DNA of 64,000 nt from Terriglobia bacterium (GTDB lineage Bacteria; Acidobacteriota; Terriglobia; 20CM-2-55-15). Position numbers and translations under genes: made by a program. Positions 27,942 through 60,506 of this stretch are shown here, one piece after another (position 1 is the first letter of the stretch; the number at the start of each line of letters is the position of its first letter). A model generated the notes under the pieces. It was not told the DNA's origin. It saw nothing but the letters and a program-made list of their open reading frames with translations, and ran no database searches. The stretch is taken from assembly GCA_963664115.2 (NCBI GenBank), contig CAXWPJ010000010.1, forward strand, positions 192,001 to 256,000. The letters are read 5' to 3'.

Positions 27942-29220
27942 AGTCCTGAGAAACGAATTCAGATCAACCGGTCGATGCAACACCTGCGTTTAATGTCTCT
28001 GCCGGATTAGCGAAGTCCAGCGTCTCACGAGGTCGCCCGTTGAGCTTCCTTGCGATCATATCCAAATGCTCCTGTGAGTGAACCGACAAATCCGTCCCTT
28101 TAGGAAAATACTGTCGGAGCAAACCGTTCGTGTTTTCGTTCGAACCCCGTTGCCAGGGACTCCTCGGATCGCAAAAGTAAACGGCAATGTCGGTGGCCAG
28201 AGTGAACCGTTTGTGATTGGCCATTTCCAATCCGCGATCCCAGGTCAGTGTTTTATAGAGTTCGGTCGGGAGTTTGTCTGCGTGTTCGATCAGCGCGTTG
28301 ATGACGGTTTCGGTTTCCTTATTCGGAACCTTCACCCGCATCACGTACCGGGAGAAACGTTCGACCAATGTCGCAATGTAGGTGTTGTTCGAACCCGCTA
28401 TGAGATCCCCTTCCCAGTGTCCGGGGACCGCGCGATCTTCAACCGAAGCCGGGCGCTCACGGATCGATATCAGATCCGGGATCTGCCCGCCACCCCGGCC
28501 TTTGCGACTGGCATGCTGGGACCGGCGAATCGTGCGTTTGGTCCGTAGATGCTGTGTCAGTTCTTTCTTCAGAGCCCCGCGGGCCTGGATGAAAAGGCTG
28601 CGATAGATCGTTTCGTGTGACACGTAAAGTGACTCGTCGTCTGGATATTCGCGTTTCAGCCAACCCGCAATTTGTCGCGGTGCCCAATCCTCCCGGAGCT
28701 TCTCTTCGACGATCCCGCGTAAGCTGGGATAGCGGATCAGTCGACATCTCTTCGGGCGGTGAGCCCGTTCCCATGCGCGTTCATCCGCCTCCAACGCTCG
28801 ATAGTTATCATAGCCCCCATTGCGACCGATCTCCCGACTGACTGTGGAGGGTGTACGCGACAGCGACTCGGCAATTGAACGGATCGATCCCTTGGCGGCA
28901 ATGCCTCGGGAAATCTCTTCACGCTCGGCGAGGGTCAGCGCCCGCTTAGAGCGGCATCGTGTCCTGGGACAGATTCCACCATACGGTGCGATCTGACCAT
29001 AAACCGAAGAGCCCTCCTTTCCGAACACACGTCCGATCGCTTTCAGACTCTCTCCCCGCTGCCAGCGAATCCACACCTCGTCTATATCGGCGAGTGTGTA
29101 GCCTCGCCGCACCCGGTCTTTACTCTGTTTCTTCCGTCGTTTCTTACGCATACACTCCACCTCCTCCTTTTAGGTACAGTGTTGCATCGATCTGTTGAGA
29201 TCACCGACATTGTCGGACGT
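27942..29220 (-). repeat. Inverted partner site B1, split by IS30
   Basis: agtcctgagaa-acga|IS|gaca-ttgtcggacgt. Removing the IS restores the same spacer (acgaca) as B4. Confidence 0.8.
27957..29205 (-). mobile_element. IS30-family element (transposase 27964-29160)
   Basis: Motifs GHWEGDLI, TWDRGLEM and SPWQRGSNENTNGLLRQYFPKG. About 27-bp inverted repeats sharing tcgatgcaacac. Apparent 2-bp (GA) duplication. Confidence 0.92.
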
Positions 29221-29642
29221 TGAGAATTGCTTTGGCTTGATCAGAGCCTTCTCAGTCAATGTTTGCATGCAGTTGGGGCATTTGGCGGTCTCCAGAGCCC
29301 AAACATCTCCCTGCTGTTCGTAGCGCAGCAAATAGGTCTTACCGTTAGTCGTGCGAACCTTGAGGTACTCGGCGTCGGGTTCGAACCAACGGTTCTCGAC
29401 GGAAGCAATCTCGTAGGCTTCTTCGTGCAGAAGCACATAGGGAAGCGCGGATTCGTTGGTTAGCCACCCGCTACCTGTCGTGGACAACCTTGAAAACCTG
29501 CCCTCCTGAGTTGACGATGCCCTGCGGCACTTTGCCGTCCAGCCGTTCCAGAATTTCCCGCAAGGCCGTGGCGTTCCCTTCCATGCCAAGTGCAATCCAC
29601 GGAGGGAGTCGTCGCCCAGATTTAATCCCACGAGCCTCCAGG

Positions 29643-30512
29643 TCACAGAAGCCGCGCCAGATCCTGCGGCAGCGGTGATTCAAACCTTAGAAGTTCTGCA
29701 GACAACGGGTGCTTGAATTGCAGGGAACTAGCGTGCAATCCCAGTCGCTGGGCAGGATTCGTGCGGGCCTCATATTTGTGATCGCCGATGATCGGACATT
29801 CCGCATCAGCCAGATGCACCCGGATTTGATTGCGCCGACCCGTCTCTGGTGTCAGTTCGATCAACGCGCGGGTCCCGATTCGCTTCATCACCCGGTAATG
29901 GGTCACCGAATGGCGTGTCCGCTCGCTGGGAGGGGCGCTGTAGACCTTGAAGGGGCTGCTCTCATCCAGGTGTGACCTCAGCACGCCGTGGTCAGCCGGT
30001 GGATTTCCTTCCACCACTGCCAGGTAGCGTTTTTCGGCCTTGTACCAATGTGTTTGCAGCGCGTGCTTCGCCGCCTCCGTCTTCGCAAAAACCATTAGCC
30101 CGGACGTCTCGCGGTCCAACCGGTGGACGATCCACACCCGCTCCGGGCTCTGAGGATTGCCGCGGCGCACGTAGTCAGTTAGAAAGGCATAGGCTGTCTT
30201 GTCCCGTTCCGTCGCGTTGGCCATGCTCAGCAGATTCTCGGGCTTCTCGATGACAATTAGCGACGCATCCTCAAACAATACCTTCATTCCCGGTGGCAAC
30301 AGACCTTCTGCGCGTACCTCGCCCCTGGGGCGAATCGAAACCAAATCCCCGGTCTCCAGAGGGTGAGTCGAGCGTGTGATCGACCGACCGTTGACTTGAA
30401 CCGACCCGTACTTGAGCCACTGCCGCACCTTTGTCCTCTTCACCTCAGGGCAACAGGCAAAAAGAAAGGCCAGAAGTTCCGCAGGGTGTTCGACAGTGTG
30501 AGATGCGGGCAT
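29643..30512 (-). CDS. RluA-family pseudouridine synthase
   Basis: IVHRLDRETSGLMVFAK, TGRRNQIRVHLA, IIGDHKY and LGLHASSL. Confidence 0.93.
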   Translation of the reverse strand: MPASHTVEHPAELLAFLFACCPEVKRTKVRQWLKYGSVQVNGRSITRSTHPLETGDLVSIRPRGEVRAEGLLPPGMKVLFEDASLIVIEKPENLLSMANATERDKTAYAFLTDYVRRGNPQSPERVWIVHRLDRETSGLMVFAKTEAAKHALQTHWYKAEKRYLAVVEGNPPADHGVLRSHLDESSPFKVYSAPPSERTRHSVTHYRVMKRIGTRALIELTPETGRRNQIRVHLADAECPIIGDHKYEARTNPAQRLGLHASSLQFKHPLSAELLRFESPLPQDLARLL

Positions 30513-30678
30513 GACGCTGTGTTGCAGTGAAACAGGCTCCCGAAGCTATCAGGCAATCGGAGAACGCGACGCAGACGAAAGGCGGACCAGACCCTTGACT
30601 TCGCTCACGCCAACAGTCTAGCCGGTAACGAGGCTGGTGGCGATTCTGTCGGCGATTGGCAGGACAATCAAAGTCTCA

Positions 30679-30764
30679 AGTCCTGTTAAACGGTATTGTG
30701 TCATTTGAGAAATGCCTGAAATACGGGGGTTTTTCAACTTCCGACGAGATGATTTATCAGGACT
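30679..30764. repeat. Site pair B2 (30679-30706, degenerate) and A4 (30737-30764)
   Basis: agtcctgttaa-acggta-ttgtgtcattt, then acttccgacga-gatgat-ttatcaggact, then a kinase-tail remnant. Confidence 0.75.
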
Positions 30765-31170
30765 TGACCTTGGAAATCAGGGAACCGGCACTCGTTCCTT
30801 CAGTTCTTACGCCCAACAGGCGCTTTCACGCCACGAAAAACGCAGCCAATTCTCGGTGTGACAAAAACACAACGTCGTCGTCAAAGAGGTTGAGTGACAA
30901 TTTCCTCCACCATCCCACTCACGGGTGTTCGTTGTAATAGGGCACCCGCCATTTTTTTTGACGAAACACCATCGGGCCTCGATTATCTATCCCCTCTGTA
31001 CCGGGCGGAACGGCTTTTCGGCTTTCAGTCCTAAGGGGAAGCTGAGGGACGTCGCCCGGTACGCAAAAGCCTACCGCTCCTTTGTTCTTCTCTAAGTGTT
31101 GCGGCTCGTTGACAAAGCAGCATTCAGAATCGATTAAAATAGAAACAGGGACAAAAACACAAGGTGAGCC

Positions 31171-38488: not shown

Positions 38489-38735
38489 TGTGTCTCTCCC
38501 TTTTAAAAAACCGTTAACTCAATTCGAATTGCCCGAGGCCGAACGTCGGCCAAGTTGCGGATCAGTTGGGACGCGGGATCGGGGTCCGCCTGGACACCTA
38601 CACAGTCGCCGGATTGTACCCACGGCGCAACGCCGTCACAGTCTTGAAATCCAGCCTCATTCAATTGGAAGCCAGCGGCAACGCCTTCATTTCTCACTCT
38701 CGGCAGCGAGGTAAACCCACACAATTCGATTCTCA

Positions 38736-38763
38736 ACTTCCGACAAGATGATTTGTCAGGACT
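38736..38763 (+). repeat. dif-like site A5
   Basis: acttccgacaa-gatgat-ttgtcaggact, then ctacggcaccggc (tail remnant). Confidence 0.85.
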
Positions 38764-38950
38764 TGAGCTCCATTTTCACGGTTGGCTACGGCACCGGCTC
38801 CAGGTCCATGACCGCGCCGCCATTCCACAGGCCGTTCAGATCGCGGACCGGAGCCGGCTCCTGGGCAGCTCCGTAGCGCGACAGGGTGAGAAACATAATT
38901 ACAAAGAAAGACGCACCGCCGGAACGTCTGATCATGTCGGATGCTCCCGC

Positions 38951-39349: not shown

Positions 39350-39510
39350 CTCTCCTCCTTCCCCTCTTTCGCATTTCCCGAATGACAGGGTCCCCCGACG
39401 AATGACGCTCTCAGTTCCCGTTGGCGTTAAGGCTGCGAATCGTCGAAATGAACCGTTAAACACTTTGCAAACGATACTAAAGGGATGCGTTAAGCGCTAT
39501 CCAATTCTCA

Positions 39511-39593
39511 AGTCCTGACGAACGACCTTGTCGTCTTCTGAGCACGCGCCTAAAAATGGGAGTTATTCAACAACAAGATGATTCGTCAGGACT
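39511..39593. repeat. Site pair B3 (39511-39538) and A6 (39566-39593), both degenerate
   Basis: agtcctgacga-acgacc-ttgtcgtcttc, then ...acaa-gatgat-tcgtcaggact. Preceded by the kinase leader sequence (aacgatacta...gcgctat). Confidence 0.7.
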
Positions 39594-39764
39594 TGAGAAG
39601 GATAGCCGTCCGAAGAGTCGGAGCTCTCCGATTCCTCCTCTGTGAACCGTTCGGCCAGGATCGCGGCTGGCGCCCGGATGGGGCCGAATTTCGAAACATT
39701 TACATGGCGCTCGGCCGCCGATATGGCCGTATCATTGTTTTCGTTTCCATGTGGAGGCATTTCT

Positions 39765-42257: not shown

Positions 42258-42330
42258 GGGCTGTCTCCCCCCTTGCTACCGCAGTGCACTCCCCGCCAGT
42301 GTTCCTGGGGACACGAACCTCACTCAAGTA

Positions 42331-42564
42331 TTCCTCGAAACCGTGGATCGCCGCTATGTTGGGATAGTTCAGCGAGGCAAGCATCTTTGCTTCACGTTCA
42401 AACCGAGCAAGACGATCCGTGTCTTTCGCGAACTCTTCGGGCAGCATCTTAATTGCGACTTCACGTCCAAGTTTGGTGTCCCTGGCACGCCACACCTCAC
42501 CCATTCCACCCTTACCCAAGAGTGTGCTGATCTCGTAGTGGCCGAGTTTGGTGCCAGATTCCAT
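42331..42564 (-). pseudogene. Ser/Thr kinase N-terminal remnant (about 78 codons)
   Basis: MESGTKLGHYEISTLLGKGGMGEVW...IHGFEE, then unrelated sequence. Confidence 0.85.
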
Positions 42565-42646
42565 GTTTAAAGTGTGTCGCCAAAAGTAGTGGCGAAATTC
42601 TGGTAAGTCTATCTAGGTGGGAGGGTTATTGGCTATTAAATTCTCA

Positions 42647-42674
42647 AGTCCTGAGAAACGACATTCTCGGACGT
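42647..42674 (-). repeat. Inverted partner site B4 (intact)
   Basis: agtcctgagaa-acgaca-ttctcggacgt inside ttctca...tgagaa. Confidence 0.85.
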
Positions 42675-42726
42675 TGAGAAACCCCAGCAATTTACCCAAT
42701 TCTCAAGGTCCGAGAAGATGATTTAT

Positions 42727-44769: not shown

Positions 44770-44844
44770 TGACCTTGGAAATCAGGGAACCGGTACCCGT
44801 TCCTTCAGTTCTTCAGAGACCCCTCTAAGCCGAAGTCCCGCGGT

Positions 44845-46918: not shown

Positions 46919-47180
46919 CTAGCAAGGTACGGGAACACGCTGCTGCGCTTCATGTGGGACAGCAGCGACGTACAATCGCGTTGCTCTCAGGGGGCCTTCC
47001 TCGCTGGTCGCACATCAAGAGAGAACGACGCCGGGGGGTCCGATGCCAAGTGGGATGGCGCTTCGTTGTCCAGGCCGCCAATATCACCTATCATCACAAA
47101 GCCGCCCCCGACAGATTCCTTGCGGAAATTTTCGGCGCTTGAATTAGCGGCCACATCACGAGAACACTGCGATGCCTAAA

Positions 47181-48337
47181 CTAGTGGTCCCCGTTAAACA
47201 GACTGTAACTTATCAAGATTTCGCCGGCCGCGCTGGACTTTAGCAAGGATGTCGGAAGCCGTTGCAGTCCAGATGAAGGGTTTCGGGTCTTCATTGTGAC
47301 GAGCGAGGTAGTCCTCCACGGCCTGGATCAACTCGGGGACCGAGCGGAAAACGCCACGCCGGAGTCGTTGCTCGGACAGATCCCGGAAAAAGCGCTCGAC
47401 CATGTTGAGCCACGACGCACTGGTTGGCGTGAAGTGCACATGAAAACGCTTGTTACGCTTGAGCCAGTTGACGACTTTCTGATGTTTGTGAGTCGCATAG
47501 TTGTCGCAAATAATGTGGATCTCCTTATCTTTCGGCATGGCGCGTTTGATCTGATTCAGAAACCGGATCCATTCCTGATGGCGATGCTTTGGCATGCAGG
47601 TTCCGATGACCGAACCGTCCAGGATGTTGAGCGCGGCGAAAAGCGTGGTTGTCCCGTTACGTTTGTAATCGTGGGTCATGGTGCCACACCGCCCCTTCTT
47701 CAGAGGTAACCCGGGTTGCGTGCGGTCCAGGGCCTGCATCTGGCTCTTCTCATCGCAGGACAAGACAATGGCGTTTTCCGGTGGGCTCAGATACAGACCG
47801 ACCACATCCTCCAGCTTTTCGGCGAATCGTTTGTCGTTGGATAGTTTGAAGGTTCGTGACAGATGAGGCTTCAGTCCATGGACCCGCCAGATTTTCCCGA
47901 CCGTGGACTCGCTCACGCCAACGGCCTTCGCCATCGAGGCCCGACTCCAGTGCGTCGCGTTCGGGGGCTTCTCTTCCAGTGTCTTCTTGACGATCCGGGC
48001 TCGCTTCCGGCGACTGATCGTGGGAATCCGTCCGCTTCGCGGCGCATCCTTTTCGATCCCAGCCAAGCCCTGTTCCACAAAACGATTGCGCCAGCGGCCC
48101 GCTTTCTGGCGCGTGATCTCCAAGCGGGCGGCGATCTCATAATTGTTCCGACCTTCAGCGGCCAGTAATACAATTCGGGATCGTTCCGCCAACCGGACCG
48201 ATGTACTCCGGCTTCGACTCAGTCGCTCCGACTCCATCCGCTGCTTGTCATCCAATTCAATGGTCGGTGCTTTCCTCATTCTCTATTGGACGTTGGAAAG
48301 CTATTTTAGTTACATTACTTCGAGCGGGGTACACTAG
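47181..48337 (-). mobile_element. IS630-family element, intact transposase 47194-48279
   Basis: 361-aa DDE transposase related to the copy at 12 kb. CTAG at both ends. Confidence 0.93.
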
Positions 48338-48339
48338 TA

Positions 48340-49242
48340 ATGACTCTTGCATTCTTGTTTTCCTTGTGCATCTGCGCATTTTTAGCGGATGCACAGCTCA
48401 ATCTCACCGCGGCGCAGGGCACCGAGGCCCCACAAACCGGAACCCTCGAACAAACCATTCCCGGCCATTATAGGTATGAGTCCGGCGCCCGTGTCAGCGG
48501 GGTCATACTGACAAATGAAGGGGTTGTCGTCGTAGACGCTTTGAGTAGTGGCGCCATGGCGATGCATGAGCGGCAACTGATCGCCGGCTCACTCCAGCAG
48601 CCGGTTCGCTTTCTGGTTTCTTCAACTTTCCACAACAACTATACGCGAGGCAATGTCGCCTATGGCGACGTAGTTAGGATCGGCCATGAAGAATACAAGG
48701 CCGATCTGCTCGCACTGATGATCGAGGACAACGTGCCTTCGGTGGAACAAGAGGCGAGGCTCCCGCATCAAACCTACCGCGAGCGCATGTCGCTCCACCT
48801 CGGCGGCAAGGAGATTCAGATTATCCATATTGGTCCCGCGCACACACGGGGCGACAGTATCGTTTTTGTTCCTGAGGACCGGATTGTCTATGTGAGCGAG
48901 TTGCTTTTTTACAACCGGTTTCCGTGGATGAATTCCGGATATATCGAGTGGATAAACGCGATCGATGCCGTCTTAGATTTGGACGCCGACATTTTCGTGC
49001 CCGGACAAGGACCGATGAATTTCGATGATCCTCGCGATTCGCGGGAGGCGCTCATTCGTTTTCGCCAAATCCTAGTTGATGCACGCGACGCCGTTCAGGC
49101 AGAGATTGAGCGTGGCGCGACGGAAGATCGGGTTGTCGCCAGCGTCCTACTTTCCCAATACGAAGAATTGGGTGGATACCAACAGCAAAGAGAGGTTGTT
49201 GTGCGGCGGATTTATCGCGACTTAAAAGGCACGCTCGAGTAA
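48340..49242 (+). CDS. MBL-fold hydrolase-like exported protein (original start detached by IS630)
   Basis: GVVVVDA, GPAHTRGD and VPGQG. Removing the IS gives MPKLVMTLAF starting at 47172. Confidence 0.75.
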   Translation: MTLAFLFSLCICAFLADAQLNLTAAQGTEAPQTGTLEQTIPGHYRYESGARVSGVILTNEGVVVVDALSSGAMAMHERQLIAGSLQQPVRFLVSSTFHNNYTRGNVAYGDVVRIGHEEYKADLLALMIEDNVPSVEQEARLPHQTYRERMSLHLGGKEIQIIHIGPAHTRGDSIVFVPEDRIVYVSELLFYNRFPWMNSGYIEWINAIDAVLDLDADIFVPGQGPMNFDDPRDSREALIRFRQILVDARDAVQAEIERGATEDRVVASVLLSQYEELGGYQQQREVVVRRIYRDLKGTLE

Positions 49243-49470
49243 GAGCGCCGTGACGTTCTTTTCCGACTTGGGCCCTAGGCACGGCCGCTTGATGGACCTG
49301 CCTGAACGCCGTGCAAATTCGATCTTTCCAACTTAAGTGGACAATGCCAATCGAATATCTACTATGGGTCGGTGGCGGACAGATAACTTCTCAGAAGATC
49401 GTGGTCTGCCCTTTGTTGTTTGCTGCTGAGTAGGACAATAGGCCGAATCAATAATCATCTCAAAATTTAG

Positions 49471-51178
49471 CTAATCCAGAGGTTCAACCCGGATGAGCGT
49501 ACCTTCGAGATTATCCCCAACCCAAAAAGAAGGAGGACTGGTGCTATTGTCCACATCCACCCGGCGGATGTTGGTGGTTCCCGGTAGCAAAAACATGGTG
49601 ACTTCATCGGTTTCGGTGTTGACCCGCGCGACATAATCGTTGGTCATGCCACCCCCCCCAGGCAAATCCGTCCTGGTCGAGGATGGCATCATAAGGATTC
49701 GTCCACGCGACTGGGACCTCCCATTCCCGGAATTCCTCTGCTTTGGTATCGAACATCGCAATTCTGTTCCCGCGAAATTCGCCAAACCAGAGTCGGTCTT
49801 GCGAGTCCATATGTCCTCGCCGGGGACCCGAATTAGGGGTCGGCGTCCGGTAGGGAGTGGAGACCAAGGTTTTGGCATCGACCCGGGTTACGTGATCACC
49901 GCCAAGCTCCATTCCATAGAAGTTATTCATCGAATCAACAGCGACACCATAAGAACCAATTCTACTGGCGGCTTCAACCATGTCAGGTGCGACGCCCTTG
50001 GTATAGTCAATCGCAGTCCACACACCCGATTCTAAATCCACCTGGTATTCCTCAACTCCACCGGTCCAGACTTTACCGTCCACATCAACGCGGGTCGGCG
50101 TGACCATCGCGGTGCGGGCCTCATCACCCTCGTCGAACAGTGGGCTTTTCCAGTGATCGAAGGTTTCCGTATCCCGGTTGAACCGCATGATCACCCCCTG
50201 GTACATCATCCCGAGAAAGATATTTCCTTCCGGATCAAAGTTCATATCGAGATTTCCTCCGGGGACTTCGGGCTTGGTCATAGGGATGGGATACTCAATG
50301 GTCTCTCCGTTCTTCGGATCCAGTTTTCCAAGATATTGAGAACCGAAATCGCCGTACCATACCATCCCGTCCGTATCCACAATGGCATCGTGCGGTAACG
50401 CCTCCGGCCGCGGCAGATCGTATTCCGTCATAATCACACGCGTTCCCTTCCCTGTCGGACGAGGGAGGGTCTTGAGAGGATAATCCCACTGGGATACCTT
50501 GCTCAGGTTAATAGAGCTGGCATACTCGCCAGTCCCTAGGGCCCGCTCACCGATCTCATCTTCCGAAATATTCATGCCACCATCATTGCCGACGAAATTG
50601 GGCCGTATCTGAGGACGCAACGGGGTAGAACCCTGCGCCCAGCCCCTCATTCTGTCCACAACGTGTGCAAAATCATCGGCGTTGTACCGGGACCGGACGA
50701 CCGGTTCCAGGGTATGGCAGGATATGCATCCAAGAAACTGCTGTTTCTCTTCGACAGTACCAGGCATGCTCAACAGCCATTCACCGTTGGAAAGTTGAGA
50801 GGCGATGTCCCCTGCAGTGCGAAGATTCAAATCAAGCTGTGTAGTTTTCTGCGCATCCACCATGATCTGTCCAGGATCCGGCAGTTCATACCCCACTGCG
50901 CGGATGCTGACTCCGTAGGGTCCCGGTTCCAACCGGTCCGAGGGGAAGCTGTATCGACCCTGGGCATCGCTGACCACCGTGACCGTGAAACTGGCTCCTT
51001 CCCGCCTGACAGTTACCAGCACGCCTTCCATGGGTCCTTCCGCTTGCGAGCTAACCTCACCGCTTAACGCCCCCGAAAGTACGGCACCGCTCATCTGTGC
51101 CGTGGCCTGCGCCCAAACGCTGCCACAGGTCATCACCGATAGCGACAAGGCAGCGAACGAATTCCTCAAAAGTTTCAT
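49471..51178 (-). pseudogene. Carboxypeptidase-regulatory-like domain + CxxCH + Vgb-like beta-propeller protein, frameshifted
   Basis: CISCH and PHDAIVD...VWY propeller repeats. The frame changes at a C8 run (49652-49659), which may be a sequencing error. Confidence 0.7.
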
Positions 51179-51755
51179 CTTTATCCCCTCAAACGATAAC
51201 CGCTTCAGATTAACCATAACCATTCTAGATTCGCCCCTTCCCGCTCACCGAAGTAACGCGTGGGGGGACTGCATGTTGATAGCGGGTTGATATCGGTGGA
51301 CCGTATCATATATTAATTTATTAAACCCGCTGCTGTGCTGGAAAATCCAGGCCCCGCACGCATCCGAGCCGGCCTGGCGTGAGTCCATGTGCCGATCGAT
51401 CCCAACCGCTCTGGCTGCCAGGATAAGCGTTGTGCCCACCGGGAGGGCCATAACCTAGGCGAGTAATCGAACGCACCCACAGACCGAATCTGGACGTTTC
51501 GATGGGAACACCTCTCGAGCCGATGCCGGGAGTATTATTTCGGCGGGAAGCTCGACGGATTGTCATGAATTGTTTGAGTAACGACGAGGCCGGAGAGGAG
51601 GAGCTCGTTTTGGAGTGACCATTGAGCGACAAGCTACGGCGGCGTTTGTATTAACCTTGCTCGCAGGTCTGTGATCCGGGAAGCGCCTAGCCACGGGCTG
51701 GTTTTGACCGGCTACCCTACGTATACTGGGTGGCAACTCGGAGGGAGTAAAAATC

Positions 51756-52121
51756 GTGGCCAAATGGAAGTTCTTCCACAAGTACGGGTGAGGGAGTTGC
51801 GAGAAGACGGAAGCGTGGCTTTCGCAAAACGGTATCGCATTTCAGTCGATCGACGTCCTGACGCACCCCCCCTCGATGGAGGAGTTTCAACGCATCGCTA
51901 GTGCCCTCGGAGGTGGCAAAGCGCTGTTGAACTCTGGCAAGGTAAAGGACCTCGATTACAAGGCAAACATTGCCGGTCGTGAGCTCAGCGACGACGAGCT
52001 ATTGCAGATCCTTCACCGCTATCCCGACCTGCTGCACAAACCAATTCTATTCGACGGCGAACGGGCAGTGACCGGCTACGTCCCGGAGGAATTGGAAACT
52101 GTGGTTAAAGCTGCGCCGTAG
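51756..52121 (+). CDS. ArsC/Spx-family redox protein with an in-frame TGA (UxxC), candidate selenoprotein
   Basis: RBS gagggag and GTG start. Reads KFFHKYG-TGA-GSCEKTEAWL...YPDLLHKPIL. Hairpin after the TGA. Confidence 0.8.
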
Positions 52122-52423
52122 GCCGAATGAAGTCGGACATGGCAAATGCCCACTCGGGCCTCGACACAGTAATCTAATGCCGGGGCCGCATCAAAGAACC
52201 TCTGCTCTGGAAGGTCGTCCCTAGCCGCACCCAGCGGCCCGATGAAAGCCGACTGACGAACACCCATGCGAAGGATGCGTCCACAAGTTCTCATCGTGGA
52301 CCTCGCCGAATCACCTATCGACTTGAGGTGATCTTCTAGGACTAATGGGGGTTGAGAATACGGTGGCATTTTCACTGGACAACTACAGGAAAGCGTCAAC
52401 TCCCGTCTTTTGCCCAATTCTCA

Positions 52424-52451
52424 AGGTCCGAGAAGATGATTTCTCAGGACT
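52424..52451 (+). repeat. dif-like site A9 with kinase-tail remnant
   Basis: aggtccgagaa-gatgat-ttctcaggact, with a tail remnant at 52472-52525. Confidence 0.85.
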
Positions 52452-52564
52452 TGAGAATCGTTTTCACGGTCAACTAAGGAACCGGCACCCGTTCATTCAG
52501 TTCTTCAAACCATTTCAGGACGATGAGAATCCGGGGCCGGACAGCCTGGCGGAATCAAAACGGT

Positions 52565-52807
52565 CTAGGAGACTTGGCTTTCGAGGAACGCCCGTCCCTT
52601 GTCTGTGAGCTGAAACATCCCGGCGTCATGGTCGACGGTGACGTACTCGTCCGCAACGAGATCCTCCATCAGTTGCGAGAAAGCCTGATGCCCAGCCTGA
52701 TAAAAGACGAGGCTATGAGTGTGGAGATCCCGCATGGGGATCGAGCCGCCCTTCTTCGTTATGAACTTCAGCAAGCCCTGTCGGGCCGCCTGGATGTCCG
52801 TGCCCAT
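52565..52807 (-). CDS. Small hypothetical winged-helix-like protein
   Basis: 80-aa ORF ending in FQLTDKGRAFLE. Confidence 0.55.
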   Translation of the reverse strand: MGTDIQAARQGLLKFITKKGGSIPMRDLHTHSLVFYQAGHQAFSQLMEDLVADEYVTVDHDAGMFQLTDKGRAFLESQVS

Positions 52808-52838
52808 TTTGCTACCGTTTTGTTATCCTGATTGCACC

Positions 52839-53042
52839 ATGAAATTCAATATTGGCGACAAAGTTCAGCCTATTGGCGACAAAATTCGTTCAGCCTCCGT
52901 TCGTCCAGTCATGACTGTGATCTCCCTCAAAGAAGACCAGGGACTAGTTACCTGCACTTGGCCCTACAAAGGCACAATGAAAGAAAGCAGCTTCGCTGAA
53001 GACGCGCTCGAAAGCTTCCAAGTCCCTAGTCCCCCTGCGTAA
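52839..53042 (+). CDS. YodC/DUF2158-like small protein
   Basis: MKFNIGDKV...PVMTV...VTCTW...FAEDAL. Confidence 0.65.
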   Translation: MKFNIGDKVQPIGDKIRSASVRPVMTVISLKEDQGLVTCTWPYKGTMKESSFAEDALESFQVPSPPA

Positions 53043-53062
53043 CGGGATGATTTCAATTCTCA

Positions 53063-53090
53063 ATGTCCGAGAAGATGATTTATCAGGACT
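53063..53090 (+). repeat. dif-like site A10 with kinase-tail remnant
   Basis: atgtccgagaa-gatgat-ttatcaggact, with a tail remnant at 53103-53142. Confidence 0.85.
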
Positions 53091-53180
53091 TGACCTCGGA
53101 AATTAGGGAACCGGCACCCGTTCATTCAGTTCTTCAAACCAGGACGGAATCAATTCTCAGCTTTCGCCAACAGAGAGCAT

Positions 53181-54271
53181 TCACTGGCTGTGTCGGACCG
53201 CAAAGTCGGACAGTTGTTGGAAATACTGCGGCGGAAATCCGGCTGTCGTCGGGATGTACTTCAAGGCCAGCATGGTGTGGTCAACGTTCGGGAGGACCTC
53301 AATCTCTATCGCTTTGCCGGATCGCGCACGATACTCGGTGAGGAATTCCACGCTATCTGCGGTCTGAACGTTGAGGTCGTTTTCGGCAAAGATATAGAGC
53401 ATCGGTGTGTCGATCAGGTCCAGAAACGGCCTCGGATCGTAAGACCAATCCCCAGCAGGCTGTTCGTAAAAGTCCGCGTCGTAATCAACGAGCTGGGCTG
53501 GAAGGCGGGGAAGTCCCTGATCGGAAAATTCCTCCAGTGCCTGATTGATCGCTTCCCGTTCTGGCCCGAGGGCGTACGCCTCGTCTGATGCCGCCAGGAT
53601 GACGTAGCGCCAGATTCGCTCGCGGAGTACCAACAAATCCTCAAGCTCTGTACCGCTGATGTTCAGTGCCTTCCAATCATTTTCGACTTCGTACAAGTTA
53701 ACGTCGATCCATGATAGCGGAGGGCCCGCGCGATTGATGATGAACGCAATCTCACCAACTGACGCCGCCACCTCTGGGGTACCCCCCCCCCGCTGCTACC
53801 GAGAAGCCCCACGCGATCAGGGGCGATGTCAGTCCGTTGTTGCAGGAACCGAACAGCGGCGATGGCATCGTCAATGAAGTCGCGGTAAGTCGCGTCGCCA
53901 AAATCGCCCTCGGACTCACCCGCCCCTCGCTTGTCGTACACGAGTGCAGCAAGGCCGGCCCTGACGAGCATGTTCGTGTGGATTCTGTAGGCCGCCATGC
54001 CGCGTGTGTGCGGGCCAGAACCGTGCAGAATCACAGCTGCCGGATGCGGACCGTCGGTCTCGCGCTTGACGAGGACGCCCGCCAGTCGAATCTGTCCGGA
54101 CTGGATCGAGACTTGTTCGACGTTTCCGCCGTAGGCCAAGAAGTAATTGAGCCAAGCACCCACAAGGATTAGAAGGACAGTCACGACAACGGCCAGCCCG
54201 ATCCCCAGTCGTTTGAATGTCGCGCTGTGGTTCTTGAGCCAGCTTGGGTTGACTGGCACGCTAGACCTCAC
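53181..54271 (-). pseudogene. Alpha/beta hydrolase, frameshifted at the nucleophile elbow
   Basis: LHGSGP, YDKRGAGES and GLLGSS, then a frame change at a C10 run (53782-53791). AENDLNV and DH lie in the downstream frame. Confidence 0.7.
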
Positions 54272-54520
54272 CCATCCCGCCCTCGCCGATGGCGAAGAGG
54301 ATTGCGTAGTGACCGGGTTGCATTGGATGAATAAGACTACACGTGGGGTTTCAGGTCAATTAAACAGTCACATCTCCGCATAGGGGACGATACAGGGAGC
54401 GCCAGTAGTAGTTATCCAGATCTACGGCCGTTGATCGCGCAACCGCAGCTCTTGCGCGGGGTGGGATGCGGCCCGGAGCATGGTGGGCGCGATTACGGTT
54501 GCCGGGATTTTACGGGTATT

Positions 54521-54967
54521 CTATCGTCCGCGCTGCCGGCGATACTCAGCGAGACGCGCCTCCATTATTCTCAATCGCTCGCCGAGCTGCCCGTTTCCAC
54601 CGCCAACTTCACTCCCGTCAGGCCGCGTGATGAAGGTCCATTCCACCATGTTCGATCCGTCTCGTGACGGGCGGCCCAATATGTGGATTCGATCCCCGGG
54701 CTTGAACTGATCCAACGTCCAGCCTGCTCGCCGGAGATTGATGACGCTGTCTCCCTCCGCCATCCAGGATTCTGTTTCACCTCGCTCATTCGTCACGTCA
54801 AAGTAAATCCGCGAATGCGGGTTGATCGCTCGAAATTCGGTCACCACGCCTTCGATTTCCATGCGCTCATCGACGATGTAGTGTGCCGCGGGGTTATGGT
54901 GGGCGAAGGCGGGCACTGAAACCAGCAGTGCGCCATAGACAAAGGTCAAGATCTTGCCTGTCATCAT
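54521..54967 (-). CDS. DUF6152-like exported protein
   Basis: AHHNPAA, AINPHS and LRRAGW...KPGD. Confidence 0.75.
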   Translation of the reverse strand: MMTGKILTFVYGALLVSVPAFAHHNPAAHYIVDERMEIEGVVTEFRAINPHSRIYFDVTNERGETESWMAEGDSVINLRRAGWTLDQFKPGDRIHILGRPSRDGSNMVEWTFITRPDGSEVGGGNGQLGERLRIMEARLAEYRRQRGR

Positions 54968-54983
54968 CTCACTGTCCTCCACA

Positions 54984-55835
54984 TCAGCGTTGCCCGGAGA
55001 TCGACTCGCAAGGGGCATCCAGCAAATCCACCTCGGGCGTACGGAGTCTAGTATGTTCTAGCACCAGCGGCTCTCGAAACATGACCGGATCGATCAGCGT
55101 GAACTGCATGTGCAGTCGGCGGCCATCCTCGCTGAGGGTGTAGCGCTCAATACTGCTCGCGTTATCGGCGTTGTGAATAGCCAGGTTGTCTTCGGCGACG
55201 TTAGCCGCGACATTCACGGTGTCCACCACCAGCGTAGATCCCTCGTACCGACCAATCGAATGACCCAGCGGGCTCGGTTGTGCGTCTTGTGGATGACCGC
55301 GTCCATCCGTGTAGATGACGCGGTCCGACGCCATGTCTTCTGCCCTGATGACGATGCGGTCGTCGTTCTGCTCGATCAGGATAGGGTCGTTGTGCAGTAC
55401 GGTGCGAAAGGCCCCGAAGTACTCACACTGAATAGAGGGATCGTCGGCGTGGTCGTACGTTGCCGCGTAGTCTGTACCTCCTTCGGTTAACAGAGCTGCA
55501 ATGGCTCGTTGGTTGTGATCGCGGACGGCTTGCCGGATTTCTGCGGCTGACAGATGGTCGTTCTCCGGGAGCAGGAGCTCACGAAGGTGCTCGTAGCTTT
55601 CCCGGGTACAGTTGCAGGCAAAGAGATCCTCGAGGGTCCAATCTGGGTGCTCGACAGAGGTTGTGGTCGTGCTCCACATGCCCGACAGGGCCGGAGGCGG
55701 CTGCTCCTGGGCCCCGGCGAGCGGTATGCCGAGAACGAGAGTGCCCGCGACGGCCGCGCCAAGGAGTTTATGTTTGGCGACCCTCGCGAAGGTACGCAGC
55801 AGCGGGACTCCGCGCGGGGCGATAACGAGTCTCAT
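54984..55835 (-). CDS. Exported hypothetical protein (commonly paired with DUF6152)
   Basis: RVIYTDGRGHP, GHSIGRYEGSTLVVDT and DPVMFREP. Confidence 0.7.
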   Translation of the reverse strand: MRLVIAPRGVPLLRTFARVAKHKLLGAAVAGTLVLGIPLAGAQEQPPPALSGMWSTTTTSVEHPDWTLEDLFACNCTRESYEHLRELLLPENDHLSAAEIRQAVRDHNQRAIAALLTEGGTDYAATYDHADDPSIQCEYFGAFRTVLHNDPILIEQNDDRIVIRAEDMASDRVIYTDGRGHPQDAQPSPLGHSIGRYEGSTLVVDTVNVAANVAEDNLAIHNADNASSIERYTLSEDGRRLHMQFTLIDPVMFREPLVLEHTRLRTPEVDLLDAPCESISGQR

Positions 55836-55968
55836 GATTCCTCAATGACGGACAGTTCCGTTTCTGAGTCGATTTTACCTGACTCGGCCACGGATTGGCC
55901 CGCAAATTCGATGCTAGAGGTTGATTTTCTGCTTGCCGATACAGACCACCCACACGTGATATCGCCCT

Positions 55969-56328
55969 AAGTGCTTCTGCGATCTGAAGTGCGAGTTTCA
56001 GAGACTCTTCAACCGGGATAGCCCCACGGCCAACACGATCTGCCAGCGTGTCACCTTCCACGAGTTCCATGACAAGGAAGTGGGTTCCATTGTCTTCTTC
56101 AAACCCGTGAATGGCAGCAATGTTTGGATGATTCAGCGAGGCCAGGAGTTTGGCTTCACGCTCGAACCGGGCAAGGCGATCTGTATCCTTGGCGAACTCT
56201 TCTGGCAGAGTCTTAATAGCAACCTCACGCCCCAACTTTGTATCCTTCGCACGCCACACTTCCCCCATACCTCCTCTTCCAAGGAGCGTTGAGATCTCGT
56301 AGTGGCCGAGTTTGGTTCCGGATTCCAT
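55969..56328 (-). pseudogene. Ser/Thr kinase N-terminal remnant (about 120 codons)
   Basis: Near-identical to the start of the intact kinase up to QIAEAL. Lacks HRD and DFG. Confidence 0.85.
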
Positions 56329-56435
56329 GTTTAACGTGTGTCGCCAAAAGGAACGGCGAAATTCTGGTAAGTCTATCTACATGGGAGGGTTATTGGCAAG
56401 GAAAGGGTCAACTCCCAAAATTTGGCCAATTCTCA

Positions 56436-56463
56436 ATGTCCGCGAAGATGATTTCTCAGGACT
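56436..56463 (+). repeat. dif-like site A11
   Basis: atgtccgcgaa-gatgat-ttctcaggact, 12 bp from the stop codon of the intact kinase. Confidence 0.85.
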
Positions 56464-56475
56464 TGACCTCGAAAA

Positions 56476-59145
56476 TCAAGGCACCGGCACCCGTTCCTTC
56501 AGTTCTTCAAACCAGTTTAGGACCACGATGATCTCGCCCCCGCGTGAGTCGTTCTCTGATTCGCGAATCATGAGAAAACGTTCGCCATCCGGCGCGATGT
56601 CGTAAGTGTGGGAACGGAATCCAGAGGATCGCAGGTAAGGACCGGAGAACAGCTCTCTCTGCTGCGTTGCCACGAAGGCCGGAGTCGTCTCGACCGAGGC
56701 CGCCATCACTCTACTCCCTTGGCGGTAGTAGATTTCAGTTCCGTTGGGGGACCATATAGGTTCTTCTCCTCCCGCTCGGGACACGCGCCATGGCCCTCCA
56801 TCTGCGACGTTAGGAAACGGCCTGACCAAGATCTCTGGTTGGCCTAACTCGTCGGACGAATAGACCATCCAGCGACCGTCTGGGGAGATTTGCGCGTGTC
56901 GTTCTCCCGAATCTGAAGCAAGCAGTGCCTGTGGACTGGGTTCACCAACCAGCGAGAGCTGTCTGAGGTCCGAGTCTGTCTCCGGCCTCACCGCGTATAC
57001 CAGCGTCTCTCCGTCAGGCGAGACAGAGGACAGTATCGGCGGTAATCCGGGAGGAAGTACCGCGATGCTCTCGGCTTGATCCGTGCCGTCCGCACGTCGC
57101 CGAAAAACCGTAAACACCCCCTCCGGGTCGGAAAGGAACACCACGTGTTGCCCATCCGGCGTCCACAACGGCTGCATGTCGGCTGTCGTCACATCGAAGA
57201 TGAATGGCCTTGTTGTTTCTCCCACCACGTCGTGCAGCCACAAATCTTCCCGAGACTCCGGACCCTCAGCAACAAGAGCGACCCTCATCCCATCGGGCGA
57301 AATCTGTACACCGCCGTAGGCGAGTGTCTCGCCTTGAAGAGGCTCTTCACTCCCCGCGCGATCGACCCATACCAACGCCCTTGCGCCGTCACCCATGTCC
57401 GCCGGGATGTAGGTCATCGCTCCGCTCTCAGCGAGGGCGAATTGCACCGCGCCACCGCCCTCTATTCGAACCCCCTCAAGCACCGGAAGTGCATTGCCGG
57501 TAATCTCGAGTCGGGACTCATCGAACGGGACCGCCCACAACGATGCGCCAGTCTGCGCGTAGAGTAGATGACCCGTAGGCGAGTAACGAGGGAAGAAGCC
57601 ATTGCCGAGCACCTTTCTCTCTCCGGTCTGCAGAGACACCACTGCAATCTGGGCCGTGTCCAGCGAACCTGACCAGATCGTGAATAGCACCGCGTCACCA
57701 GCAGGCAGGAACGCGGGCTCGTCGTGATATATCTCACCGGCTTGCAGCCTGGTCAGCTGCTCCGGAGCGCCTCCCGTCAACGATAGCCGCGAGAGTGCGA
57801 GCGTGTTGGAATCTGAAAACACGATCGTCTGATCGGGACCCCAGGTGCTACCAAAGCCACCACATTCGCAGATCGTTGTCGGCGATTCTCCTGCCAAAGA
57901 AACCCTCTTCAGACCGTCGGGACTCCCGAATGCAAGCCACTGGCCATCAGGCGAAAAGAAAGGGAAGTCCGCACCCTCCGAGCCGCGGATCGGTACGGCT
58001 TCAAGTCCGTTTATGGGACGACGGTACAGTTGGTCTCCCTCCTCAGTAAAGGCTCTGTAGACGAGTTCCTGACCGTCGGGAGACAGCGCGAGAAGATGCC
58101 CCACCCTTGGGGGGAGCTCACCACTGACATCGATTGCAAAACGTGCCGCAGTCTGGTTCGACGAAGCTGGTCCTGACGACCAACTGGCGACAACCGCAAT
58201 CAGGAGCGCAACCCCCGTGACAACCCACGGCACTTTCGACTGCGGTGCTGCATGAGCAACCCCACCAACCGACTGCACGAGCACACCGCTCGGGTCCGCC
58301 AGCACTTTCTCGATGTCCGCTTTCACATCACCTATATCCTGGAATCTTGTTGCGGCTTGTTTGTCAAGACACCGTTCCACCACTTCCCGAAGTCGTGGAT
58401 GAAGATTAGGGGGCAGAGTGTCCCACTCCGGCTGCAGGCTGATCACGGCCGAGAGAGACTCCGCCACATCGGACTTACCGAAGGACTGACGGCCTGTGAG
58501 CATTTCATAGAGGACACAGCCGAACGCGAATATGTCCGTGCGTTTGTCAACTGCGCGGCCCTTGGCTTGTTCAGGGCTCATATAGGCGGCGGTGCCGAGG
58601 ATCATTCCTTGCTGCGTAGCCGCCATACTCAGCGTTGGCGAGTTCGATACGCTTGCGTCGACCTCATCACCGGCAAACGCTTTAGCTAACCCAAAGTCGA
58701 GCACTTTCACATTGTCGTCGTCGGTGACTTTGATGTTCAGAGGCTTTAGGTCTCGATGGATGACACCTTTTTCGTGTGCAGCCTTGAGAGCATCGGCGAC
58801 TTGTAGAGCTATTTTGAGCGAGTCCTCAACAGCTATGGCTCCACGGTTTAGGCGATCCGCGAGTGTGTCCCCTTCGACAAGTTCCAAGACGAGGAAGTGC
58901 GTTCCGTTGTGTTCCTCAAATCCGTGGATGGCTGCAATGTTCGGGTGATTCAGAGAGGCCAGTAGCTTCGCTTCACGTTCAAACCGTGCAAGTCGGTCCG
59001 CATCCTTGGCGAACTCTTCGGGCAGCGTCTTGATCGCCACTTCGCGCCCGAGTTTTGTGTCCCGCGCACGCCAAACTTCTCCCATGCCTCCTTTACCCAG
59101 GAGGGTTGAGATCTCGTAGTGGCCGAGTTTGGTGCCAGATTCCAT
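56476..59145 (-). CDS. Hanks-type Ser/Thr protein kinase with a TM segment and PD40/TolB-like beta-propellers
   Basis: GKGGMG, VAIK, HRDLKPLN, DFG and YMSPE. TM segment VPWVVTGVALLIAVVA. SPDG repeats. Ends in VLNWFEELKERVPVP. Confidence 0.95.
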   Translation of the reverse strand: MESGTKLGHYEISTLLGKGGMGEVWRARDTKLGREVAIKTLPEEFAKDADRLARFEREAKLLASLNHPNIAAIHGFEEHNGTHFLVLELVEGDTLADRLNRGAIAVEDSLKIALQVADALKAAHEKGVIHRDLKPLNIKVTDDDNVKVLDFGLAKAFAGDEVDASVSNSPTLSMAATQQGMILGTAAYMSPEQAKGRAVDKRTDIFAFGCVLYEMLTGRQSFGKSDVAESLSAVISLQPEWDTLPPNLHPRLREVVERCLDKQAATRFQDIGDVKADIEKVLADPSGVLVQSVGGVAHAAPQSKVPWVVTGVALLIAVVASWSSGPASSNQTAARFAIDVSGELPPRVGHLLALSPDGQELVYRAFTEEGDQLYRRPINGLEAVPIRGSEGADFPFFSPDGQWLAFGSPDGLKRVSLAGESPTTICECGGFGSTWGPDQTIVFSDSNTLALSRLSLTGGAPEQLTRLQAGEIYHDEPAFLPAGDAVLFTIWSGSLDTAQIAVVSLQTGERKVLGNGFFPRYSPTGHLLYAQTGASLWAVPFDESRLEITGNALPVLEGVRIEGGGAVQFALAESGAMTYIPADMGDGARALVWVDRAGSEEPLQGETLAYGGVQISPDGMRVALVAEGPESREDLWLHDVVGETTRPFIFDVTTADMQPLWTPDGQHVVFLSDPEGVFTVFRRRADGTDQAESIAVLPPGLPPILSSVSPDGETLVYAVRPETDSDLRQLSLVGEPSPQALLASDSGERHAQISPDGRWMVYSSDELGQPEILVRPFPNVADGGPWRVSRAGGEEPIWSPNGTEIYYRQGSRVMAASVETTPAFVATQQRELFSGPYLRSSGFRSHTYDIAPDGERFLMIRESENDSRGGEIIVVLNWFEELKERVPVP

Positions 59146-59252
59146 AAAATAGTGTGTACCTAAACGAACAGTGAAAAAGTTGGATAAATCTAACTACAGG
59201 TGGGGTTTATAAGCAAGGAAGTTGTGAGCTGGCGGATCTCATCCAATTCTCA

Positions 59253-59280
59253 ACGTCCGACAAGATGATTTCTCAGGACT
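59253..59280 (+). repeat. dif-like site A12 with kinase-tail remnant
   Basis: acgtccgacaa-gatgat-ttctcaggact, with a tail remnant at 59293-59335. Confidence 0.85.
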
Positions 59281-59417
59281 TGACCCCGAAAATCAAGGGA
59301 CCGGCACCCGTTCTTTGAGTTCTTCAAACCCGTTCTGAACCCCGATGGTCCGGGATTGCCCTGCTTCACTGTTTGTGCTCGCGTTGTCTGAAGACGATTT
59401 GAGCCCGAATCACAGGC

Positions 59418-60113
59418 TTAGCCGGCATATAGCAAGCTATAACCATACTCTTGTGCCCGTGTGAGGGCCATGACGCCGGCAGAAACGAAGCGGCTGTTCG
59501 GGATCGCTCCCGCAACCAGCTCCTCATACACGGCATCGGTAGACCCACCCTGAGCATTCGCAATCTGTTGAGCGAAAAACTGTGTCGCTGCATTACACAC
59601 GGCAAATTGGGTACCTCTCTCGACTAGAGAATCAATCGTATTCCCGAAATTTGGCAGAGTCGAATGATCGGCCGAGTTCATCAGGTTGATCATCGGCGGC
59701 CCGCCTGTGTCGGGATCTGAATAATTCATCAGTCCTTGAAAAACTCCACCATATTTCGACCAGACCCCGTCGTTGTAGCCAAAGGGAGTGGAGAGGTGGC
59801 GAAAGCAGACCACCATGGCGAAATCGACCGGGCTACCCGAGCAGGCATTCTCCTGAGCGTTGTAGAGGTTGTTCGCGTACAGCAGGGCCTCGGCCCCGCC
59901 CAATGCCGTAGCGGAATCGACGAAGACCCGGTGTTGACCCCCCAACTCGTCCATCCACCCGTCCAGCCCATGGCGAGTGGGCACGAAGCCAGCCGCCGAC
60001 TCTGTTGCCACCGGTGTCTGAGCGCATGCCGTCGTCGCCCCTACCGCGAAACCGGCGGCAGCGGCTCCCATTCCAACCATCAAACGTCGGCGTCCAAGGT
60101 TATCCTGCTGCAT
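59418..60113 (-). CDS. Tat-exported DsrE-like protein
   Basis: GRRRLM twin-arginine signal, FAVCNAAT and VSAGVMALTRAQEYGY. Confidence 0.7.
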   Translation of the reverse strand: MQQDNLGRRRLMVGMGAAAAGFAVGATTACAQTPVATESAAGFVPTRHGLDGWMDELGGQHRVFVDSATALGGAEALLYANNLYNAQENACSGSPVDFAMVVCFRHLSTPFGYNDGVWSKYGGVFQGLMNYSDPDTGGPPMINLMNSADHSTLPNFGNTIDSLVERGTQFAVCNAATQFFAQQIANAQGGSTDAVYEELVAGAIPNSRFVSAGVMALTRAQEYGYSLLYAG

Positions 60114-60254
60114 CGTGACGTCTCCTTTTGCGGGTTCGACGCGTCGAGTCACCGTGGATCGGTGTCTGGCGGTGAACCGAGTTTGCGATCCAAACTTCTC
60201 TCTATCAGGCAAGACAGAACCGCCATGCGGGTCGTCCTAAACTCATAGTGCAGT

Positions 60255-60330
60255 CAAACACCTCACTCATTCCACCCCTGCCCAAAAGTGTGAGGATCTC
60301 GTAGTGGCCGAGTTTGGCGCCAGATTCCAT
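60255..60330 (-). pseudogene. Kinase N-terminal remnant (about 25 codons)
   Basis: MESGAKLGHYEILTLLGRGGMSEV. Confidence 0.8.
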
Positions 60331-60412
60331 CGTTCATAGTGTGTCGCTGAAAAACCGTGAAAAACTTGGTAAACGATACTAGAGGTGGGTGTTAGGCGCT
60401 ATCAAATTCTCA

Positions 60413-60506
60413 AGTCCTGAGAAACTTTGTAGGTAGTTGAGAAATAGGCCAATTATTGGGGTTTTTGGGGAATTCTCAACTTCCGCGAAGATGATTTCTC
60501 AGGACT
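60413..60506. repeat. Site pair B5 (60413-60437, shortened spacer) and A13 (60479-60506)
   Basis: agtcctgagaa-act-ttgtaggtagt-tgagaa, then acttccgcgaa-gatgat-ttctcaggact, then a tail remnant at 60518-60557. Confidence 0.8.

Follow-up and report, generated by a model that had tools for sequence, protein, structure and literature searches.

Two spacer classes of a site with an XerC-like arm border relocated modules in a Terriglobia genome

Introduction

The sequence examined here, hereafter the window, is a stretch of 64,000 nucleotides (contig C10, positions 192001-256000) from a Terriglobia bacterium whose genome (G000, the host genome; 4.89 Mb) is assembled in 12 contigs, C1-C12. The window is an accessory island with many insertion sequences (IS) and secreted-type proteins, and its kinase content consists of one full Ser/Thr kinase-propeller gene together with many kinase fragments. 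It also carries a repeated site, composed of two arms and a 6-bp spacer, which occurs in two classes (A and B) with different spacers and opposite orientations. An initial annotation, made from the window alone, had likened these sites to pdif sites and proposed that each class recombines by preference with itself. In this paper, we report a genome-wide analysis of both classes, the evidence that they bound relocated modules, and the recombination system that may act on them.

Site search and genomes compared

Sites were searched with a profile in which the spacer was masked. Coordinates without a contig prefix are window positions and those with a C prefix refer to contigs of the host genome. 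Comparisons included four congeners (G001-G004) and genomes of other genera (G006, G007, G016, G017 and G021). The three site-rich genomes, G000, G002 and G003, were compared for PF00589 tyrosine recombinases.

Sites and genes in the window

The masked-spacer profile describes a site of 17-6-17 bp, with the left arm TTCTCAAcGTCCGAgAA, a 6-bp spacer and the right arm TTcTCAGGACTTGAgaa. Most positions are 90-98% conserved and the outer TCA/TGA of the arms 94-99%; both arms carry GA(G/C)AA on the inside and TCA on the outside, a symmetric footprint that is absent from dif. The spacer is GATGAT in class A and TGTCGT or GGTCGT in class B. There are 14 A sites in the window, from 7404 to 60901, all on the forward strand, and five B-type sites, all on the reverse strand (Table 1).

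These five are the B sites of the initial annotation (27942, 30679, 39511, 42647 and 60413). The first is split by an IS as described, its halves at 27936-27956 and 29206-29226 reading TCGT and TGTC, which join to TGTCGT. The 27-41 bp annotated between four B sites and the A sites that they face, measured from 11-bp arms, equal 15-29 bp between 17-bp arms, and arm profile scores agree that the facing arms are the XerC-like ones. The annotated TGTCGT-like spacer holds at 27942 and 42647 (TGTCGT) and at 39511 (GGTCGT) and fails at 30679 (TACCGT) and 60413 (AGT). The last of these, which starts at 60407 in Table 1, is a deletion derivative and not TGTCGT-like, because its spacer has only 3 bp; a full homologue in G002 has the spacer AGGCGT and the same gap family. 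At least 10 sites of the host genome lack exactly 3 spacer bases (including window 60424-60426), such deletions (GAT, TGT, GGT, AGT) being commoner than other indels, and no 9-bp spacer was seen among the sites of this genome. Three base pairs is the length swapped in tyrosine-recombinase strand exchange. The annotated position of B beside a kinase leader is likewise found nearly always genome-wide, whereas 30679 adjoins only ~15 bp of leader-like sequence. A sigma-70 promoter scan of 42400-42800 returned none, and a TTGATA-N18-TAGTAT seen by eye in the commonest leader is not claimed as a promoter.

Table 1. Positions of the sites and associated features in the window.
Position	Strand	Feature	Family or copy
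7404..7443	+	A site, GATGAT	
20438..20477	+	A site	
25780..25819	+	A site; kinase tail stops 10 bp from right arm	
27936..27956	-	B site right arm and last 4 spacer bases (TCGT), then kinase leader	
27957..29205	-	IS30-family element, spacer-centre insertion, 2-bp duplication, transposase 27964-29160	NF033563
29206..29226	-	B site left (XerC-like) arm and first 4 spacer bases (TGTC)	
30673..30712	-	Decayed B site, back to back with A 30731 (18-bp gap); left arm decayed, spacer TACCGT	
30731..30770	+	A site, partner of B 30673	
38730..38769	+	A site	
39505..39544	-	B site, GGTCGT, decayed left arm, back to back with A 39560	
39560..39599	+	A site, left arm decayed and right arm the same as in its partner, B 39505	
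42328..42640	-	Kinase leader plus residues 1-79 (head), following B 42641	
42641..42680	-	Intact B site, spacer TGTCGT, 19 bp from A 42700; kinase head 77 bp downstream	
42700..42724	+	A site left arm and spacer, cut by IS110-family element (transposase 42734-43876)	NF033542
44736..44775	+	A site	
52418..52457	+	A site	
53057..53096	+	A site	
56430..56469	+	A site at 3' end of full-length kinase	
56476..59145	-	889-aa Ser/Thr kinase with beta-propeller (PD40) repeats	
59247..59286	+	A site; left arm adjoins kinase leader, B site missing	
60407..60443	-	B-derived site, 3-bp spacer AGT (60424-60426), probably inactive, 29 bp from A 60473	
60473..60512	+	A site facing the shortened B 60407	
60513..60861	.	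A-A module, 349 bp	copy at C6:39814-40162
60862..60901	+	A site	

Genome-wide distribution and orientation

There were 177 full matches to the profile in the host genome, 130 of them with GATGAT and 21 with exact TGTCGT or GGTCGT, and none in one base-shuffled genome. When half sites and sites with indels are included the list grows to 266 records (183 A, 46 B and 37 unclassed), in which IS-split sites are counted twice. The sites are dispersed over nine contigs, and 258 of the 266 records lie outside long open reading frames, which take up 75% of the genome.

Both the two classes and their opposite orientation, which the initial annotation had suggested for a genome-wide tally, hold across the genome. 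Among all records within 15 kb of each other, A-A neighbours are in direct orientation in 109 of 113 cases and A-B neighbours inverted in 52 of 55; intact sites alone give 81 of 86 and 31 of 32, respectively. The shared polarity annotated for the window from 7 to 61 kb is real, and it recurs in 21 islands with at least three classed sites each, totalling 531 kb or ~11% of the genome, where A sites follow the majority by 146 to 14 and B sites oppose it by 32 to 4. A comparison of polarity with replication direction met a GC skew that is weak and mixed in this genome. On contig C5 the polarity switches precisely where a tyrosine recombinase gene (316 aa; C5:52059-53270) is enclosed by an inverted B-B pair; these two B sites are near-identical, point outward and are each followed by a kinase head.

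Back-to-back A-B pairs number 22, with a gap of 15-19 bp in 13 and of 108 bp in five, and B-A pairs measure 58-59 or 148 bp from centre to centre. By sequence the gaps form three families, of which two have an A/T tract in the centre, and the gap length is constant across these unrelated families. Nineteen of the pairs are close, so that inverted doublets like those of repetitive extragenic palindromic (REP) sequences are present.

Such pairs raise the explanation that the sites work as single-stranded hairpins, either with the B-A pair folded into an attP like that of CTX with a mismatched centre, or with each site forming a REP- or attC-like hairpin cut by an HUH transposase or an integron integrase. 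The CTX attP, according to the available part of the source, consists of an inverted pair of sites, 90 bp apart, whose centres are incompatible (PMC4246890); B-A pairs here can fold at -15 to -25 kcal/mol, partners resemble each other in the left arm slightly more than expected by chance (p=0.013, 19 pairs), and several IS families target the sites. We nevertheless consider a hairpin improbable, as the two arms show no covariation among 205 distinct sites (positions 15-26 paired in 34% against 37% expected), partner right arms are no more alike than chance (p=0.70) and 175 A sites, the majority, stand alone against 32 with a B partner. Only one of 10 Y1-transposase loci examined has a site nearby, and an IntI-like gene (C9:714590-715759) is ~195 kb from the nearest listed site on its contig (C9:911002) and has no orthologue in G003.

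Site classes and the kinase gene

Class B marks the 5' end of a kinase unit and class A its 3' end. When 262 intact sites were classed by the right flank with the spacer ignored, spacers on the leader side ended in CGT in 33 of 37 sites and in GAT in none, while the 225 non-leader sites ended in GAT in 203 and in CGT in two, both of the latter with decayed leaders. Every intact B site abuts a kinase leader or its decayed form. Kinase heads in the host genome follow a B right arm in 21 of 66 cases, a further 18 following an A left arm with B missing; of 104 kinase tails, 61 stop at the right arm of an A site. The full-length kinase of the window has a copy, 94.8% identical, between B and A at C5:155791-158457; only seven long kinase matches are left in the genome. 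The kinase gene looks like a capture vector. Seventeen modules retain a kinase head and tail at their ends, most of them enclosing other DNA, and kinase remnants in the window were noted at 25829-25885, 42328-42564, 55936-56328, 60256-60330 and 60911-61057.

Spacer substitutions are commoner in the left triplet than in the right (42 versus 24, p=0.036, duplicates kept), which resembles the XerC-side tolerance described for pdif sites in the available part of PMC13141974.

Exchange at the sites

Pairs of sites with one flank in common and the other different belong to the same class in 141 of 141 cases (left flank, 36 A-A; right flank, 101 A-A and 4 B-B), although these pairs are not independent of each other. 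B sites reassort their left and right flanks at the site, each gap family occurring with several leader subfamilies; the B sites at C5:297987 and C11:140787, for example, have 30 of 30 left-hand bases, the left arm and the spacer in common and diverge thereafter. Variable positions are linked inside each arm (8-15, 9-15, 14-15 and 26-27, p=0.003) and the inner positions are not linked across the spacer (15-26, p=0.21).

Comparison of 275 modules yielded 19 near-identical full-length pairs. About 10 of these have unrelated sequence outside both bounding sites and are mostly A-A units of 84-99.8% identity, the remaining pairs being segmental duplicates. Relocated modules include C2:264338, matched by C6:43804 at 99.8%, and C2:317301, matched by C12:161243 at 99.7%; the 349-bp module of the window recurs on C6 at 96.8% with both flanks unrelated. 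The junctions fall inside the sites in all six relocated pairs that were aligned. Judged from sequence, this record is that expected from excision and integration of single circles.

The proposal that A x A and B x B form separate exchange groups thus agrees with the flank-sharing pairs. The double-crossover cassette exchange proposed with it does not appear to be the main mode, because A outnumbers B by ~4:1, most modules lie between direct A sites and the majority of moved modules are single A-A units; cassettes are probably for the most part excised and integrated singly, not by double exchange. Joints between A and B are rare in the host genome, with three found (two left-left and one decayed right-right). 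The spacer GATCGT, seen twice in relatives, is no proof of a hybrid because it is one substitution from GGTCGT.

One could also regard the sites as protein-binding repeats at the ends of an amplified kinase gene, shuffled by short-homology recombination without a site-specific enzyme, the classes being mere labels of the 5' and 3' ends and the spacer mismatch cutting the homology between A and B into pieces too short for use. The confinement of intact B sites to leaders, the many kinase tails at A right arms and the partial uncoupling of arm positions from their flanks would fit. This seems to us improbable, since the left arm reproduces the dif XerC arm and the 6-bp spacer of dif is kept as well, 72 of 107 A-A modules have no kinase head or tail beside their sites, and the back-to-back gap keeps its length across unrelated sequences.

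Comparison with dif and search for a recombinase

The host has a separate canonical dif, ACGTCGCATAA TGAGTA TTATGTCAAGT, at C2:108118-108145, 8 kb from the GC-skew maximum of its contig, which rules out that the repeated sites are the host dif; of 24 family genomes searched, 19 conserve this dif. Another dif-like sequence, degenerate but with the same spacer, lies 3.4 kb away (C2:111514-111541), possibly belonging to an element integrated at dif. A class-wide search found a single dif-like match in 27 of 151 genomes, several with the XerC arm ACGTCCGATAA, and arm profiles were built on 20 of these 27. Acidobacterial dif was previously predicted as single sites (PMC3025954, available part).

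The left arm of the repeated sites matches the best XerC arm of the class at 10 of 11 positions and that of the host's own dif at eight of 11; it scores 8.3 on the C-arm profile and -9.3 on the D-arm profile, and varies at the same two outer positions as the dif XerC arm. This arm and the 6-bp spacer bear out the annotated analogy with pdif; the second arm, which is no XerD arm, and the mostly direct boundaries of the modules do not.

Among PF00589 recombinases, only XerC and XerD (79-92%) have orthologues in all three site-rich genomes. A looser custom hidden Markov model (HMM) added only fragments in the host genome. The best matches of the host XerD, at 48-54% identity, come mostly from Acidobacteriota assemblies, and FtsK-gamma is present in the host. 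Two other tyrosine recombinases were rejected as the cognate enzyme: the C5 gene mentioned above, which has no match at E<=1e-40 in G002, G003 or G004, and a six-copy 293-aa protein that belongs to an IS91-like element and has no G003 orthologue. A Y1 protein resembling the REP-associated tyrosine transposases (RAYT) is duplicated in the host genome (C10:490039-490815 and 492649-493305) and has orthologues in all five genus genomes and one other family genome; it was rejected as the agent for being without flanking sites in four of the five.

These results also bear on whether another enzyme, either a homomeric XerC occupying both arms or a dedicated recombinase that escaped the profiles used, reads two 14-bp arms orthogonally to dif, with modules moving and classes excluding each other in the same way as under host Xer. 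The symmetry of the arms in GA(G/C)AA and the outer TCA, missing in dif, would suit such an enzyme, as would a right arm whose XerC profile score slightly exceeds its XerD score and the same-arm 28-bp cores, with other spacers, that lie between genes in three genomes of another family. We think it unlikely, given that no other tyrosine recombinase is common to the three site-rich genomes, including the C5 candidate, and that the right arm matches any XerC arm at 7 of 11 positions at most.

Distribution among relatives

The strict site pattern occurs in all four congeners (6, 55, 27 and 1 matches, respectively) and once in one of 20 other family genomes. In 400 kb of G002, a sample selected around known sites, A-A neighbours are direct in 41 of 43 cases and A-B neighbours inverted in 17 of 17. 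Class B, whose absence from related genomes would have spoken against the annotation, was found in G001, G002, G003 and G007; in G001, G003, G007 and metagenome contigs the B sites have the leader and gaps known from the host genome. Single matches in other genera are either modules (G007, G017, G021) or chance matches within a glmM-like gene (G006, G016). A few degenerate sites in G004 (loci L285 and L286) have the spacers CCGGAT, CAGGAT and CAGCGT, in which the right-hand triplets of A and B are kept.

Among 400 further genomes of the phylum, nine have one or two exact core matches. Three of the nine (G339, G198 and G427, from one other family; loci L278-L281) contain 28-bp cores that stand alone between genes; these have the same two arms, the spacers GCCGAC or GCGCGT and no outer extension. 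The sites had no match in plasmids, viral contigs or Rfam, and in the literature covered, which excluded subscription papers and supplements, we found no report of such sites in Acidobacteriota.

Insertion sequences and other features

An IS110 end lies within 80 bp of a listed site in seven of seven cases, the end of another IS in seven of seven, an IS30 end motif in 12 of 14 and an IS91-like end in four of seven. The insertion point of IS30 is the dyad centre of the site, and the IS91-like copies mostly lie ~30 bp beyond the right arm. Six copies of this last element are identical (C1:92965, C1:107675, C2:196490, C12:35350, C12:158198 and C12:487026). A published parallel is the targeting of pdif (xrs) sites by IS1202-group elements (10.1101/2022.12.17.520857, available part). 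With at least five IS lineages specialised on them, the sites offer a model for IS targeting.

Elsewhere in the window a phage-type integrase lies beside a tRNA gene (10030-11434; tRNA 11348-11434), an apical loop-internal loop (ALIL) pseudoknot was identified within an IS3 at 8487-8603, and an IS630-type element (47180-48332) is missing from three public runs, whose contigs continue across its position. Long near-identical segments link C6:24226-48383 with C11:1075-58410 and C2:487-5360 with C2:161973-166845, reflecting either duplication or assembly overlap.

Proposed mechanism

Our preferred explanation, with a probability of roughly 55%, is that the two site classes bound relocated modules and are recombined like with like by the host Xer recombinases with the aid of a further factor. 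We infer the identity of the recombinase from sequence. XerC would bind the left arm and its partner on the right arm would most likely be XerD with a helper factor, as at the TLC attP, which is activated by XafT, and at difGGI of the gonococcal genetic island (GGI). In the available parts of the reports, both sites have a divergent XerD arm, 8 bp off in the TLC attP (PMC9226527, PMC5357621), and both need an activator or escape FtsK. A x A recombination would excise a module as a circle that could insert at any other A site, giving arrays of direct repeats. The founding unit was probably B-leader-kinase-A, and many circles would hold B back to back with A; such a circle would take up the same polarity whether it entered through A or through B. 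Because A and B differ at three to four of six spacer bases, including the right triplet (GAT versus CGT), inversions would be blocked. The non-canonical right arm would in addition prevent the ~270 sites from competing with dif as decoys when the cell divides.

Several observations weigh against this explanation. The right arm fits neither dif arm, with mean scores of -1.5 on the C and -6.3 on the D profile where true arms score 16.7 and 20.1, and it agrees with the XerD arm at 6 of 11 positions, so a conserved XerD arm is lacking. The outer TCA and TGA occur at one and none of 20 dif sites, a rarity that leaves the footprint unaccounted for by plain XerCD. No clear change was seen in the recognition region of XerC and XerD between the site-rich genus and site-poor relatives, and no activator gene was found. 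In 19 pairs whose left flanks are 97% identical, position 8 of the left arm agrees in only 10 and position 15 in only 11. Such disagreement is not predicted by a clean spacer crossover and suggests conversion within the arms; this partial uncoupling of arm polymorphisms from their own flank suggests that junctions migrate into the arms before resolution. One pair of positions is linked across the spacer (15-38, p=0.04), and flank reassortment could also come from short-homology recombination. The orientation rule for B is partly inherited, B being tied by descent to the kinase leader. Public-run contigs over 42300-62200 break at repeats, with site joints of at most 39 bases on one side; they show no excision or inversion, and no circle or empty allele was seen in them. 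Directly repeated xrs sites were also not deleted in one Acinetobacter baumannii assay (PMC11705084, available part).

A bolder version, which we hold to be doubtful, is that the genus has an orthogonal Xer system in which XerC, alone or with a partner reading TCA/TGA, runs a chromosome-scale, integrase-free cassette library of ~270 sites apart from dif and FtsK, in which the B-A composite site would fix polarity and emptied kinase genes would serve as cargo vectors.

Under the Xer explanation that we prefer, the sites likely let the host recombinase shuffle genes across roughly one tenth of the genome with few inversions. It poses the puzzle of how hundreds of sites with an XerC arm are tolerated without chromosome scrambling or interference with dimer resolution. 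The right arm, together with the 3-bp extension, points to a partner or activator that could be useful as an orthogonal recombination tool, and the natural A/B pair is a ready test of the rules for heterospecific spacers.

Comparison with known systems

Xer-type modules have been described chiefly on Acinetobacter plasmids and in elements integrating at dif; those described here are chromosomal, of integron-like scale, and use two spacer classes. Likenesses and differences are drawn below from the available parts of the cited reports.

Long arrays of direct repeats with one polarity, and small mobile modules duplicated at new positions, are shared with integrons (PMC4792948). In contrast to integrons there is no adjacent intI or attI, sequence and not structure is conserved, linkage breaks at the spacer and the islands are many.

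REP sequences, together with bacterial interspersed mosaic elements (BIME) and REPINs, are known for hundreds of intergenic palindromes, inverted doublets, targeting by IS110- and IS30-type elements and a genus-limited spread, and a RAYT gene is flanked by its REP repeats. The present sites are alike in all of the former features, whereas they have an XerC-like arm, a class-specific spacer, no hairpin covariation and RAYT-like genes without flanking repeats.

The CTX attP is similar in that two Xer-type sites, inverted and with incompatible centres, lie close together (PMC4246890). Here, in contrast, there is no phage or single-stranded replicon, both centres have 6 bp, flanks reassort within a class and use as a hairpin is unsupported.

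The XerC-like arm with a strongly divergent second arm is shared with the TLC attP and difGGI (PMC9226527, PMC5357621). TLC and GGI elements share their central region with dif and integrate there, whereas the present spacers differ from the host TGAGTA, the dispersed sites apparently recombine among themselves, and an activator was not found.

Like the pdif (xrs) sites of Acinetobacter, the present sites are asymmetric, with an XerC arm and a 6-bp spacer (PMC13141974, PMC11705084). Exchange restricted to like spacers, XerC-side tolerance, modules bounded by inverted sites with different spacers, targeting by IS elements and chromosomal islands of modules are also common to both, the latter reaching 22 sites in one Acinetobacter strain (PMC12907356). 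Here, however, there are ~270 chromosomal sites, larger islands and two fixed spacer classes in place of the many of pdif, and mostly direct repeats in place of alternating C and D modules. Further differences are the missing canonical XerD arm, the 3-bp symmetric extension, the minimal back-to-back gap of fixed length and the tie of one class to a kinase leader. The system works like the dif modules without being one of them, because the XerD arm and the module alternation fail; its closest known counterparts are the Acinetobacter pdif modules and the Xer sites of TLC/GGI type, and it is a member of neither.

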